A DNA stretch of 22,848 nt, from contig JAWOFX010000093.1 of NCBI GenBank assembly GCA_046497275.1, forward strand, positions 1 through 22,848, written 5' to 3'. The position numbers and the translations under genes were made by a program. The notes under the pieces are model-generated. The model did not search any database. It saw only the letters and a program-made list of their open reading frames with translations, and had not been told where the DNA came from. The DNA comes from Promethearchaeia archaeon. GTDB lineage: Archaea > Asgardarchaeota > Lokiarchaeia > Sigyniarchaeales > SOKP01. Positions 6,930 through 14,267 of the stretch are shown in pieces. Numbering within the stretch: the stretch's first letter is position 1; every line of letters begins with the position of its first letter.

Positions 6930-8051
6930 ATGACCACTCTTTCTGAAGATACACTTATTTTTAACGCCTTAACTCCGGAAATTACGAATATGGATCAAGT
7001 ACGCAAAGCTTTGGATCATTTCATGAAACTAAAGAAGGAAAAAGACCAAAGTGATAGATTTAATCTAATTTTATTTCAAGAATATGGCCCCAATTATTTG
7101 AATGATTTTACCTTGAATCCAGAAAATATTTTAATGGCACTAAAAACGTTAGAACCTACAATTGTTCAAGGAAATCTGGCAAGTGGTATTTTTGTTGCAA
7201 TTACCTTTATAATTGAAGTCTACAAAAGAATCTCGCAAAAAGCGTTTCGACTGATAATTCTTACCGATTCTGGGACTCTTAAGATTCAAGGCAAGTTTAT
7301 GCCCGTTCTTGATAATTTGATCGATATGGTAAAAAACATGCCATTTTATATCGATATTGTGAGAATAAACACTGATGATCCGGGAGAAGATAGAAAACTT
7401 ATGGAATTAGTTAATAGTTGCTATGGCAATGTGCACCAAATTAACGATTTAAGGGATTTGGATTCAATTTTAGAGGTACTCGCTTTAAAACGTGAAATAC
7501 CTGAAGAAACATTCTATGATAAGGAAAAAAAGATTATTTCAAAACAAAATCAACCTTTTTATGTAAATTTAGCAGACGAACCTATACCCTATCAAGATAC
7601 TGAAACATGTTCGATTTGTTTTCAATCAGCTGATAATGGATTGGTTCAATGTCCAGAATGTGAAGTAATTGCGCATAGATCTTGTTTAGCACAGTGGGCT
7701 GAAAATTCAAATATAGGAATTTTAAACGTTTTTCGATGTCATAATTGTTATAATCTTTTAAAATTGGACCGAGACTATATCAATAAAGTTAGATATGGAA
7801 AAATTATGGCGTTTGGAAATATTCAAATTGAAGGATTAGATTTAACAGAATATGAACAAACAATAGAGCGCGAGAAACAACCAGAAATCATTCAGACTGA
7901 AGATCCTTTAAATGCATCTTCTTATGAAGAGGATGAATTTGAAATGGATAAGGAGGTAAAGGAAACTAAGTTTTACTTATGTCCAAACTGTTCGAAAATG
8001 ATTACAAACAAGTATAGCTATTGTCCTAACTGTGGAACAAAACTTAAGTAA
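6930..8051 (+). CDS. VWA-domain protein with C4HC3 (RING-variant/PHD-like) finger and C-terminal zinc ribbon
   Basis: N-terminal Rossmann-like VWA pattern (DRFNLILF, FTLNPENILMAL, GNLASGIFVA, RLIILTDS, IDIVRI); CSIC-x10-CPEC-x4-HRSC-x17-CHNC; terminal CPNC-x10-CPNC. Confidence 0.75.
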   Translation: MTTLSEDTLIFNALTPEITNMDQVRKALDHFMKLKKEKDQSDRFNLILFQEYGPNYLNDFTLNPENILMALKTLEPTIVQGNLASGIFVAITFIIEVYKRISQKAFRLIILTDSGTLKIQGKFMPVLDNLIDMVKNMPFYIDIVRINTDDPGEDRKLMELVNSCYGNVHQINDLRDLDSILEVLALKREIPEETFYDKEKKIISKQNQPFYVNLADEPIPYQDTETCSICFQSADNGLVQCPECEVIAHRSCLAQWAENSNIGILNVFRCHNCYNLLKLDRDYINKVRYGKIMAFGNIQIEGLDLTEYEQTIEREKQPEIIQTEDPLNASSYEEDEFEMDKEVKETKFYLCPNCSKMITNKYSYCPNCGTKLK

Positions 8052-9041: not shown

Positions 9042-10634
9042 TTATTCGGATTCTTTTGATCCTTTCGCGTTGATGATTCTATCAACCCGGAGGATTAATC
9101 GAGCTAATTCACTTCCAGATTCAACGATGTGTTTGATAAGAACAGAAGGTTCAACTAAGCCGTGTTCATAATTATTCTGAATTGTATCGGTAATCGTATC
9201 AATACCTACCCATTTATCTTCAGGAGTCTTATGCGCTGCCCTCAGTTCTGTCATACGTTCAATCTCGTCTAATCCTGCATTTCTGATTAAAGTTCTTGGG
9301 ATTTCTTCTAATGCTGTTGCAAAAGCTTGAACTGCGAGTTGTTCTTTTCCGCCGATTTCAGAGGCGTAAGTTCTTAATCTTTTAGCGATTTCCACCCATG
9401 CAGCTCCACCACCGGCAACAACTGTTTTTGTGTCAATTATTTTTGCTAAAACACTAATAACGTCATGTAAAGCTATTTCTGCAGTATTTAAAATCTTCTC
9501 AAGCCCTCCTTTGAGCAAAATTGCGACAGATCTGGGATTTTCGCAACCAGAAAATAGTGTATAATTGTCATCGCCAATTTTCTCAAATTTCACTTTTTTC
9601 GCAAACCCAAGATTCTCTACTTCTAAATCTTTTAAATCATCAATCAAAGTCGCTCCAGTAGCATTTAAAACAGCTTCAATATCCTTATCCCCGAGGCTTT
9701 TTATGGCAGCAATTCCCTCTCTTCCCAGCATAGAACCAAATTTATCTGAAATGCTTTGAGAGTTTACTACCATATTCACATTAAGCTTTTTGAAATATTC
9801 TAAGAATCCTTCTAAAGTTTTCTTCTCTTGGTCTAAAAACTTTTGTATGTCTTCGGGATTTTTTATTTGAATTTGAGAGTCATATTCACCCTTGGCAATT
9901 TCTAATTTCTTTCGAATTACCGCAATTTTGGCGTCATTTATCACATCAGGCATATTAGAACTTACTTTTTCCTTATCAATGTACACACCATCTATTAACT
10001 CGGACTCCTTCAATGATTTTCCAGGTGCTTTAATAATTTTTATATTATCAATCTGATCAAATAAGGATCCGCCATCATTTCTTTCAGCAACACTTCGAAC
10101 GGCTTTTAAAGCTAACTCAGCGAAATATTCTTTCACTGCAGCGATATCCTTAGAATTCATAGAGGTTATTGCTGCACCTAAAAGAACTTTTTCATCTTCA
10201 GGTGATATCTTTTCTGCGATTTCGTTTAAAATCTTAACTGCTCGATCAGATGCTTGTTTATATCCTTGTGTAATTGGCTTTGGATGGATATCTTGCTCGA
10301 TCAACTCTAAAGCATTTTCTAATAATTTCGCACAAAAGATTACGGCAGACGTGGTTCCATCTCCAACTTCTTTGTCAACCGATTTCGCAAGGTTAACCAT
10401 CATGATAGCGGCAACATTCTCGATATCCAATTGATCTAAGATTTCCGCACCATCATTAGTAATGGTGACATCTCCTAATGAGTCAACGATCATCTTATCC
10501 ATACCTTTTGGACCCATAGTGCTTTTCACAGCCTCAGTTATCGCCATCATCGCTCGAATGTTCTGCGTTCGTGCTTCTCTATCTCTCTTCGTTTCAGTTC
10601 CTTCCCTAAGAACTATTATTGGAACATTTGACAT
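9042..10634 (-). CDS. Thermosome subunit (group II chaperonin, CCT/TCP-1 family)
   Basis: 530 aa; GPKGMDKM, TNDG, GDGTTS, helical protrusion (IQIKNPEDIQKFLDQE), LHD, AGGGA, VEP...I motifs. The paralog type cannot be assigned by eye. Confidence 0.95.
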   Translation of the reverse strand: MSNVPIIVLREGTETKRDREARTQNIRAMMAITEAVKSTMGPKGMDKMIVDSLGDVTITNDGAEILDQLDIENVAAIMMVNLAKSVDKEVGDGTTSAVIFCAKLLENALELIEQDIHPKPITQGYKQASDRAVKILNEIAEKISPEDEKVLLGAAITSMNSKDIAAVKEYFAELALKAVRSVAERNDGGSLFDQIDNIKIIKAPGKSLKESELIDGVYIDKEKVSSNMPDVINDAKIAVIRKKLEIAKGEYDSQIQIKNPEDIQKFLDQEKKTLEGFLEYFKKLNVNMVVNSQSISDKFGSMLGREGIAAIKSLGDKDIEAVLNATGATLIDDLKDLEVENLGFAKKVKFEKIGDDNYTLFSGCENPRSVAILLKGGLEKILNTAEIALHDVISVLAKIIDTKTVVAGGGAAWVEIAKRLRTYASEIGGKEQLAVQAFATALEEIPRTLIRNAGLDEIERMTELRAAHKTPEDKWVGIDTITDTIQNNYEHGLVEPSVLIKHIVESGSELARLILRVDRIINAKGSKESE

Positions 10635-10763
10635 ATTGTATCACTTTTTTGATATTTAGTTATATTAATTAGTATTGAATAATAATTTTGGATTTTTAAA
10701 AAAATTTTTGATATGGAGATCATTTTTAAATAAATAATTTTAAGAATTGTGGAAAAAATTACT

Positions 10764-11291
10764 TCATTGCTCATTAATATAAATTCTTGGATAATAAATG
10801 ATATCTGGATTATTATTGAAATCTCGTTGCGAAACAAATTGAAATTTTCCAAGATCAGCATTCTTTTGTAAAGCAATTTGAGATGCACAATACCAATTAT
10901 AATATTCATTTGGGGGCGTGAATATTAGAATTGTCTTATTTGGTCTTTTATTTTTCATATCCTTTCCGAGTGATTTTGCGAGTGCCATATCTTTTGCGAC
11001 CTGGCCTGTAAGAATTATGTTCGAATAAAGATCCTCTTGTATTTCCTCATCGCAATACTCAATAGTCGATATAATTAATTTAGAAAGTGAGGATGGCATA
11101 ACTTTTCTATTTAATCTATTTGGTTCAATTAAAATATTGATATCTTTAAATTTTTGTACTTCCCTTCCTGCGAGTAATTCTGACATAACTGCGTGTGACA
11201 ACTTATATCCCATATAATATGGTACGAATCGAGTGGATTTATAACCAATATCCACTACAATTCCCGCATTTTTGTTTGAGTTTAACAACAC
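10764..11291 (-). CDS. Actin-related protein, C-terminal part (frame actually open up to nt 11348)
   Basis: [26 protein letters not shown]..LAGRE matches actin [48 protein letters not shown] matches CDIDIRKDLYANNVMSG. IFTPP..W matches IIAPPE..VW. Confidence 0.85.
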   Translation of the reverse strand: [175 protein letters not shown]

Positions 11292-11311
11292 CGATTTCGT
11301 TGCTTCTATGA

Positions 11312-11701
11312 TTACAACAGCTTTGAAGTTAAATTTATGAAAAAAAAACTATATAAACGTTTAATCTGCGGTTTGGGTTGTAACACCCCGTTTAAAAGGA
11401 TAAGTGAATAATTCTTGAGAACATTAAGAAGGATGGATAATTTATCCTCAAAAAGAATACTGAAAAAAGAAAACATATCTTCCCATCTTATACTCATAAT
11501 ATCCCATTTATATTCTATCATTGGTTTAGGGCTATAGAGTTCGTTTAGAGCCTCTCTACAAATAAAAATACGACTCTTATCATTAGATTTTCCGATAAGT
11601 GATCTCGCCGAAATTTTGGGCTTTTCTTTACTCGCTCGCCCCGCTTTAATATTATAGCTTCCTAAATCAATGATAAGAATATTATTAGTCGGGTTATTCA
11701 A
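11312..11701 (-). CDS. Actin-related protein, N-terminal part (frameshifts near 11340-11348)
   Basis: TTG start; IIDLGSYNIKAG matches actin phosphate-1 loop VCDNGSGLVKAG; RWEDM matches NWDDM. Similarity ends at YSFFF and the last 8 residues are out of frame. Confidence 0.85.
   Translation of the reverse strand: MNNPTNNILIIDLGSYNIKAGRASKEKPKISARSLIGKSNDKSRIFICREALNELYSPKPMIEYKWDIMSIRWEDMFSFFSILFEDKLSILLNVLKNYSLILLNGVLQPKPQIKRLYSFFFINLTSKLL
11340..11348 (-). other. T9 homopolymer at the -1 frameshift junction of the actin-related gene
   Basis: Minus strand TAT AGT TTT TTT TTC ATA. Adding one T gives [36 protein letters not shown], collinear with actin [35 protein letters not shown]. Confidence 0.8.
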
Positions 11702-11935
11702 TTTAGGTGAGAATGAAATTTGTGATTTTATACTAGTTTCATATTAATATATTATGATTATATTAGTGAATTTTATTTTTTTTAAAGTTAATTCTCTTAA
11801 TTATTATTAATTTTTAAGAGAACATTATCAATGAAGAGATAAAGAAATTGAATGGAAAGATTTAATTTTTCAATTGAAGCGAGATTTAGGAATTTAATAA
11901 TATTTTCTTCTTTTTAGCTATAGCGTAAATATTAG

Positions 11936-12421
11936 TTAGGTATCTTCTTTAAGACTATCTTTATTTAAAATTATATCACTTTCGTTCTTAAATTCTTTCA
12001 ATACCATATTTGAGACTGTTCTTGTGACGCTTTCCTTCTCATTTAATTCCCGTATAAAATCATGGACATCATCAGATTCTCTGAACCGACATATGAGTGC
12101 AGCAGATTGTTCGCCAGTAGTATGGAAGATTGAACACACTTCTGGTCGATCCCTAATTTCATTTAATATTTCTTCAGTATGCTTACCATTTATTTGCATA
12201 CGTATCAGGAAGGTAAGCTTATAGCCCAATTTAGTGTTATTCAGTCGAATCGTGTAACCTTCTATAATTTTATTGTCTTTTAATTTGGCAATTCTATTAT
12301 GGATGGTTCCAATTGATATTCCTAATTTATCTTGGATTTCTCTGTAAGATGTTCGAGCATTTTCCTGTAATATTCGAATGATGTTACGATCGATTCTATC
12401 AATATCTTCTTTTGTCATCAA
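11936..12421 (-). CDS. Lrp/AsnC family transcriptional regulator
   Basis: IDRIDRNIIRILQENARTSYREIQDKLGISIGTIHNRIAKLKDNKIIEGY HTH, plus RAM domain (HTTGE). The real start is probably ATG 12418. Confidence 0.95.
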   Translation of the reverse strand: MMTKEDIDRIDRNIIRILQENARTSYREIQDKLGISIGTIHNRIAKLKDNKIIEGYTIRLNNTKLGYKLTFLIRMQINGKHTEEILNEIRDRPEVCSIFHTTGEQSAALICRFRESDDVHDFIRELNEKESVTRTVSNMVLKEFKNESDIILNKDSLKEDT

Positions 12422-13388: not shown

Positions 13389-14267
13389 TTGCCATCAATG
13401 ATTACTTCCTTAATTAAGAACCTACAGGATGAATATGGAGATGAGATTATCGCCATTTATGGAGTCGGCAGCTATTTTGATGAATCTCTTCCCAGTGATT
13501 GGATTAAAAATGATATTGATTTAATAGTGATTGTAAATTCCTTAGAATCGATCTCTAAAAAGGATTGGACTTCAGTAAGATATGAAAAGAAAAGTATGGG
13601 AAAATTCGAAATATGGATTGGATTTAACACTCTACTAGGTTTACTCAATAAAGATAAGTTTAACAGGGAATCGTTTTCAAATTATGAATGGAGCATTTTA
13701 GATTTAAAGTATCCCTCTAATTCACTTTTTTTGTACGGACAAGATATCCGCGATCAATTACCAGATTATTCTGAAATGATTTACGATTTTGGTGATATCT
13801 TACGTAGAAGTCTATATAACTTGGATCGTAGTTATAAAGCAGAATATAAAGATAATAATCTCGAGCAAAGTAAACAATTATTCACTAAAGCGGTTTTTAA
13901 ATTCGGCTTTTATCTATGTCTATATTTTAATGAGGAATTCAGCACTTCAACTATTCGATCTATCACAGAACAAATAAGTACGTTTGTTAAAGAGGGAATC
14001 ATTGAAAATAATATGCTTATGTTCTTAGAGAGATGTATTAAATATCGCCGAACACATCACACCCAAAAAGACTTTCATATCCTAAGAACCAAATTTACTG
14101 AATATGTTTTCTCATTATTGGGAAAAGGTAAACTTCACAAAAAAATGAATTATGAAGATCTAATGTTATTTTTGGAAAATACTTTTGCAGGGCTTGAATT
14201 TCTTGTTCATATCTTAAAAAAAGCCGCAGAAAAGCCTAAAATGAATATTAAATCAAATGGAGAGTAA
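13389..14267 (+). CDS. Pol-beta superfamily nucleotidyltransferase with C-terminal helical domain
   Basis: IIAIYGVGSYF (hG[GS]) and NDIDLIVIV (DxD), then an all-helical C-terminal half. TTG start with GAGGGTGA SD-like site at 13377-13384. Confidence 0.75.
   Translation: MPSMITSLIKNLQDEYGDEIIAIYGVGSYFDESLPSDWIKNDIDLIVIVNSLESISKKDWTSVRYEKKSMGKFEIWIGFNTLLGLLNKDKFNRESFSNYEWSILDLKYPSNSLFLYGQDIRDQLPDYSEMIYDFGDILRRSLYNLDRSYKAEYKDNNLEQSKQLFTKAVFKFGFYLCLYFNEEFSTSTIRSITEQISTFVKEGIIENNMLMFLERCIKYRRTHHTQKDFHILRTKFTEYVFSLLGKGKLHKKMNYEDLMLFLENTFAGLEFLVHILKKAAEKPKMNIKSNGE

Follow-up and report, generated by a model that had tools for sequence, protein, structure and literature searches.

A rare Lokiarchaeial family of short actin-related proteins without subdomain 4, and a probably frameshifted copy of its gene

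Does an actin-like gene that is too short for a complete actin, and that is split between two reading frames, represent a genuine form of actin-related protein (ARP), or is it an ordinary ARP gene in decay? The question is raised by positions 10764-11701 of the minus strand of a 22,848-nucleotide stretch of DNA from a Promethearchaeia archaeon (assembly GCA_046497275.1, contig JAWOFX010000093.1), the whole of which we refer to as the window. Read through a run of T, the locus is a single actin-family gene of about 312 codons, with a TTG start at 11701 and a stop at 10764-10766, and is made up of two minus-strand ORFs, 11312-11701 (129 aa) and 10764-11291 (175 aa). With one T added, the gene reads as 120 codons (11342-11701; the N-terminal part of subdomain 1 and a shortened subdomain 2), one Phe and 191 codons (10767-11339; the remainder of subdomain 1, subdomain 3 and a stub of subdomain 4), that is, 312 aa. 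The frame breaks at a T9 run (11340-11348; A9 on the plus strand), past which the first ORF continues out of frame through 11312-11339, up to its stop at 11312-11314, while the other frame of the same nucleotides is the start of the second segment. The joined 312-aa reading aligned to an intact relative (P0004) without gaps, with exactly one alignment column between the two pieces, which indicates a single one-base deficit in one gene. The initial annotation of this locus described a T10-corrected protein; the run present in the sequence is T9, and T10 is the form assumed by that annotation, although it does restore the frame.

We compared the two pieces with the Pfam Actin profile (PF00022; curated cut-off, 27 bits). 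The C-terminal piece scored 56.6 bits (E = 2.2 × 10−15) and the N-terminal piece 24.6 bits (E = 1.2 × 10−5), and the joined neighbouring matches at the locus reached 60.6 bits in the genome search, which places the short ARP above the cut-off; the intact relatives carry PF00022 as well. HMMER alignment to actins in the PDB placed residues 3-64 of the C-terminal piece on actin 127-188 and residues 62-155 on actin 252-345. In canonical actin numbering (taken from P0048:137-511), the short ARP has 25 residues in place of the 90 of actin (185-274); about 65 residues net of subdomain 4 (roughly actin 190-252) thus have no counterpart, and the four-subdomain architecture of actin is incomplete. The junction of this deletion lies at 11085-11174, where LAGRE (actin 180-184) is followed by 25 residues up to the position of actin 275. 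In the D-loop region (GKSNDKSRIFIC; 11558-11593), the segment between the G36 and G55 positions has 12 residues compared to 20 in actin, a shortfall of 8, and falls 10 residues short of the Lokiactin of the same genome. Both losses, the first described as most of subdomain 4, had been read by eye in the initial annotation, and the alignments bear them out.

The same holds for the annotated changes in the nucleotide site (Q137 to E, H161 to R, and GGTT to GQVA) and for the retention of both phosphate loops, all of which are seen in the alignment to actin. The phosphate-1 motif (IIDLGSYNIKAG, with the core DLGSYNIKAG; 11639-11674) retains actin D11, G13, S14, K18 and G20 and has Y in place of G15; the phosphate-2 motif (VDIGYKSTR; 11229-11258) retains D154 and G156, with D157-G158 changed to Y-K and H161 to R; and the adenosine motif ILTGQVA (10995-11015) retains G301, followed by Q in place of G302, a position held by W in all eight other full-length members of the family described below. 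D11, G13, S14, K18, D154, G156 and G301 are invariant across that family, and K213 and E214 are gone with subdomain 4. The catalytic pair Q137 and H161 and the full D-loop for longitudinal contacts that characterize Lokiactin are thus absent from the short ARP, whose identity to Lokiactins is low (22-27%) and which does not group with them in the tree; a profile of the short family scored Lokiactins at about 75 bits vs. 470-600 bits for true members. By profile and by fold, the short ARP is a member of the actin family, but it is no Lokiactin.

An obvious concern, raised already in the initial annotation, is that close orthologs might retain subdomain 4, in which case the deletion would reflect local decay or misassembly. 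A word-indexed search identified intact relatives that measure 315, 317 and 316 aa and are 59%, 39% and 40% identical to the window's copy, and further members (317, 320, 328 and 295 aa) came from a profile search. When HMMER was run across 1.84 billion representatives, E-values below 1 × 10−30 were obtained for just two sequences, the piece from the window itself and a representative of the intact relatives; ordinary actins started at about 1 × 10−15. The eight intact relatives (295-328 aa) have both deletions, so that all nine members carry the subdomain 4 and D-loop losses while keeping the core of actin, with subdomains 1 and 3 in place and subdomain 2 reduced, and a search for relatives of at least 336 aa that would retain subdomain 4 found none. 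In a tree that included 67 other actin-family proteins, the nine short ARPs formed one clade with a support of 100 and a stem of 1.35, so the deletion does mark a clade, a point that the annotation had proposed to check. Because eight intact relatives carry the same deletions within one fully supported clade, the loss of subdomain 4 is a trait of the family and not local decay. Four eukaryote-like short actins (P0046, P0043, P0150 and P0090) were considered as members and rejected; they look like other truncated or mispredicted actins.

The family comprises two subtypes, type A (the window's copy and P0004) and type B (all other members), the latter with a conserved tail at the C-terminus whose last residues are WGLISYPL. 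This tail (AGIKTKKWGLISYPL) is basic and conserved, forms a beta-hairpin in the model and may point to a partner. Every type B gene has a PhoU_div/DUF47-like neighbor of 213-219 aa in the same orientation, some 200 bp downstream (L010, 8001-9826; L011, 8001-9813; L038, 6001-7821). In the 295-aa member (P0159; JGI/Logan contig, 17.9 kb), subdomain 2 is shorter by another 17 residues, a pattern reminiscent of stepwise erosion of the pointed-end face. Both subtypes occur in the same metagenome, JGI sample 3300035158, with type A (P0004; L009) on an 86.5-kb contig and type B (P0156; L038) on a 1.18-Mb contig.

The family is rare. Among the 154 species genomes of the order, 4 carry it, three of them in one genus, the window's genome included, and the fourth in a different family, and a search of 246 further genomes of the phylum found none; about 9 clusters of the family are present among 5.8 billion proteins, and two of its members come from the ‘Promethearchaeota archaeon’ MAGs BC3 and YT6_002. 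The family is restricted to Lokiarchaeia and apparently is missing from cultured strains too. Database names for the relatives are only ‘actin-related protein’ or ‘hypothetical protein’, and in the literature, within an incomplete coverage, we found no description of Asgard ARPs lacking subdomain 4, a weak sign of novelty. The genome of the window itself encodes, in addition to the short ARP, two Lokiactin paralogues (80% identical) and three other ARPs (L001-L005; contigs C156, C84, C172, C169 and C180 of G000); the three ARPs (L003-L005) have 371, 389 and 511 aa and keep subdomain 4. Among these, the 511-aa form, a zinc-ribbon ARP paralogue (L004), is marked by zinc-ribbon inserts. A search of this genome for a second copy of the short family found none.

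The aligned deletion could still have been a misalignment of a subdomain that is present, a possibility that the initial annotation had named. We compared AlphaFold (AF2) models, computed with alignments, of the relatives P0004 (the 59% identical one) and P0005, not of the window's own protein. Both models are of high confidence (pLDDT 90.5 and pTM 0.90 for P0004; pLDDT 94.4 and pTM 0.92 for P0005) and have the actin fold. Comparison of the P0004 model to actin and Arp2/3 chains gave Z = 32 and rmsd 2.0-2.3 Å over about 289 of 360-375 residues (about 2.1 Å for Lokiactin and eukaryotic actin), and Foldseek gave TM-scores of 0.8 by query and 0.7 by target. At the junction, the P0004 model has just three short helices (residues 179-197), without the hairpin and two long helices of subdomain 4, and nothing stands in for this subdomain in the models of the relatives, so that misalignment does not account for the deletion.

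Close type B pairs showed dN/dS of 0.23-0.27 at unsaturated dS values of 0.28-0.41, which indicates that the family is kept by purifying selection, looser than would be expected for a core cytoskeletal protein. The positions invariant in all nine members (51) cluster in the phosphate-1 loop, the phosphate-2 loop and W-loop, LAG, the SNI-x-L-x-G adenosine motif and YNW; this clustering in motifs of the nucleotide cleft is indirect evidence that the cleft is still in use. The Q137 position is E, S, P or T across the family, R stands at H161 throughout, and 8 of the 9 members have W at G302, a pattern of change from which it follows that actin's hydrolysis mechanism is probably not kept. The Trp at G302 might substitute for the lost base contacts of subdomain 4 or, as a pocket filler, might block nucleotide binding. 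The short actin form is a real, rare family kept by selection.

The state of the window's own copy is a separate matter. In the frame of the first ORF, the run reads AGT TTT TTT TTC ATA; an extra T, or a -1 slip at the T9 run, gives the same product, S-F-F-F-H-K, colinear with the relatives and open for 191 codons. We consider a real, recent frameshift in this copy the most likely explanation, and hold it with fair confidence from the sequence comparisons that follow. Across the whole genome, 144 runs of A or T of at least 9 bases lie unbroken inside long ORFs vs. 3 that have the signature of a frame break, the T9 run included, which makes a systematic assembly artefact unlikely. The other two are an A9 run on the minus strand of contig C13 and an A12 run on the plus strand of contig C25, and are candidate frameshifted genes or tight junctions. 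A Logan contig (run SRR31818007) shows the same split, with calls of 129 aa and 163 aa followed by the thermosome, but may derive from the same sample or reads. Misassembly or a chimera was rejected, given that the order AsnC, ARP, thermosome is identical in a congener (G274). The copy has no other damage: it departs from positions otherwise invariant in the family at 2 of 53 sites, one of which is the Trp-to-Gln change, compared to 8 of 59 for the intact P0004, and its end branch in the tree is 0.29 vs. 0.46 for P0004.

That the break falls exactly within a 9-base homopolymer, that one T restores a gap-free match to the relatives and that the copy is otherwise undamaged could also be explained by a sequencing or assembly error, with the organism carrying T10 and making the 312-aa protein; however, the scarcity of other broken runs shows no general homopolymer problem in this assembly, and the same split in a contig that was separately built, though perhaps from the same reads, counts against an error too, so that we regard this explanation as unlikely, although it deserves weight. 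Still less probable, in our estimate, is that the T9 run is tolerated or used, with low or variable amounts of full-length protein arising where the RNA polymerase slips or where ribosomes shift by -1 on U UUU UUU. The run does form a perfect X XXY YYZ heptamer in the incoming frame, the product of a -1 slip equals that of T10, and the copy lacks other lesions; indels in homonucleotide runs are known to be bypassed (PMC3812077), and the archaeal fucA1 gene of Sulfolobus, whose two ORFs become one reading after a -1 shift on a slippery homopolymeric stretch, is a precedent for such frameshifting (PMC1616953). The short ARP gene shares with fucA1 the two ORFs and the slippery run, but unlike in fucA1 the run is not conserved in relatives and has no stimulatory structure downstream. 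Relatives stay in frame at the homologous site without any long T run (TTA TTT TTA, TCT TTT TTT TCT, GCT TTC TTT and GCA TTG TTC), and the 100 nt downstream of the run contain no stimulatory RNA structure, with a minimum free energy of −11.9 kcal/mol that is no better than that of shuffled sequences (z = 0.71). The T9 run is therefore not a conserved recoding site, and a programmed frameshift was rejected as the main reading. Moreover, unprogrammed slippage is usually inefficient.

Under the frameshift that we favor, the initial annotation needs a qualification, as it treated the protein as made: the reading of the gene is indeed colinear with the relatives, but the copy is frameshifted and the genome has no second one, for which reason the short ARP may not be produced at all in the source organism. 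Such a loss fits the setting of the gene. The slot between the AsnC/Lrp regulator gene (11936-12421) and the thermosome gene (9042-10634), window positions 10635-11935, holds the broken gene in the window's genome (G000), an intact type A gene in the same order in G274, and nothing over about 235 bp in G276 (L035, G276:C3:6900-8000), whereas in G277 (L034, G277:C12:373000-376300) it is occupied by a 520-aa small-GTPase fusion and a 97-aa zinc-finger-like ORF; G277 has a type B short ARP gene elsewhere in its genome. Because the content of the slot varies within the genus, and the family is present in so few genomes of the order, the gene is dispensable and lies in a variable slot. The thermosome gene, which follows the actin-like gene in the same orientation at a distance of 130 bp, encodes a group II chaperonin of 530 aa (493 bits), and in eukaryotes CCT folds actin. 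An operon link with the thermosome was nevertheless rejected as a clue to function, because it is shared only by the two type A loci of one genus and not by type B, as expected for inherited synteny.

What might the intact members do? Along actin-like filaments, each subunit uses its subdomains 1 and 3 to contact subdomains 2 and 4 of its longitudinal neighbor (PMC5597319). In the short ARP, the pointed-end face is dismantled, with the D-loop shortened and subdomain 4 deleted; since the longitudinal contacts use subdomains 2 and 4, which are here cut down or missing, the protein presumably does not polymerize in the manner of actin. The initial annotation further claimed an intact barbed-end half, a claim that stands in part: the fold, the W-loop (165-172) and the 283-294 segment are conserved relative to actin and Lokiactin, but the hydrophobic groove of this face has diverged, with Y143 replaced, an insertion of 2-3 residues in 346-355 and a different C-terminus. 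Together, these features suggest a protein that would bind nucleotide without actin-type hydrolysis and that, with its pointed-end face lost, would form no actin-type longitudinal contacts through that face and hence would not self-polymerize. Its subdomain 1/3 face might dock on the pointed end of a Lokiactin filament or on a monomer, so that the filament would end there. By analogy, then, the most likely action of the short ARP would be that of a monomeric terminator or seed of Lokiactin filaments at the pointed end.

The pointed-end role is favored by the logic of Arp11 of dynactin, in which one half of the contacts is lost and the other half is still on offer. Arp11 has a deletion of actin residues 38-57 and has been predicted from its sequence to be non-polymerizing and to bind only the pointed end of the Arp1 filament (PMC2174220). 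With its dismantled pointed-end face, Arp11, along with the Arp10 of yeast, is the closest functional analogy to the short ARP; unlike the latter, it keeps subdomain 4, with insertions, and is eukaryotic, and we found no specific sequence relationship between the two. Arp11 works within the p62/p25/p27 pointed-end complex of dynactin, and we know of no partners of this type for the short ARP.

The joint account that we find best, and judge to be somewhat more probable than not, is that of a family of nucleotide-binding, non-polymerizing short ARPs that dock on Lokiactin pointed ends, with a recently frameshifted copy in the window. A homopolymer slip would thus have inactivated the gene recently in this genome, leaving at best a low expression through slippage, in keeping with a dispensable and patchily distributed gene. 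Capping by the barbed-end face is not clearly favored by sequence conservation, given that the groove that receives the D-loop of the neighbor is poorly conserved. The divergence of the groove residues from Lokiactin argues instead for a partner other than the D-loop of actin, and thus for a protein without any action at filament ends, either a nucleotide-dependent adaptor that binds a non-actin partner via its subdomain 1/3 face, much as nuclear Arps bind HSA helices, or a decoy for gelsolin- or profilin-type binders. This is a possible but clearly less probable reading: the genome does encode a two-domain gelsolin protein (contig C51) and weak profilin-like candidates, and type B has its own conserved C-terminal tail and the constant PhoU_div/DUF47-like neighbor, whereas no partner is conserved across both subtypes, and the W-loop and the 283-294 segment, which serve in contacts of actin with actin and with profilin, belong to the surface elements that are best conserved. 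A more specific version of filament-end action, to which we assign a rather low probability, is that the family consists of dedicated pointed-end terminators or nucleation seeds for Lokiactin that arose in Lokiarchaeia by the deletion of subdomain 4 and the D-loop residues, with the T-run copy representing an on/off, phase-variable-like state. If true, archaea would have, in a single protein, an equivalent of Arp11 or tropomodulin.

Lokiactin is universal in Asgard archaea (PMC9834061). The short ARP shares with Lokiactin and eukaryotic actin (PF00022) the fold and the phosphate-1, phosphate-2, W-loop, 283-294 and YxxW motifs, and differs from them in its low identity, its two deletions (about 65 residues of subdomain 4 and 8-10 of the D-loop), the replacement of Q137, H161 and G302, and its separate, long-stemmed and patchy clade. 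‘Ca. Lokiarchaeum ossiferum’ also has three other ARPs that are divergent actin paralogues (PMC9834061). Such ARPs, including the three in the window's genome, resemble the short family in being divergent actin paralogues of Lokiarchaeia, but are full length or longer, with subdomain 4, and lie apart from the short family in the tree. A precedent for an actin fold that lacks one of the four subdomains is the bacterial protein FtsA, which is without subdomain 1B (PMC5597319); in FtsA, however, the lost subdomain is replaced by an insertion elsewhere and the protein still polymerizes, and it is only a distant relative within the superfamily.

A minimized actin fold without subdomain 4 that is kept by selection is a compact test case for separating the parts of actin that serve folding and nucleotide binding from those that serve polymerization. 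It might also be a test case for an independent archaeal origin of capping by a crippled actin paralogue, to be compared to Arp11 of dynactin. The structural oddity is real and conserved, in a family that is tiny, with an inferred function, and with a probably broken and possibly dead copy in the window. Because the family has few members and most genomes lack it, its biological reach is probably narrow.

Two further ORFs of the window, both on the plus strand, are worth recording. One (13389-14267), of 292 aa, adjoins an HD-domain gene and has no Pfam match at E = 0.001; the other (6930-8051) encodes a 373-aa protein with weak, sub-threshold Pfam matches to VWA_2, RING-like fingers and a zinc ribbon.
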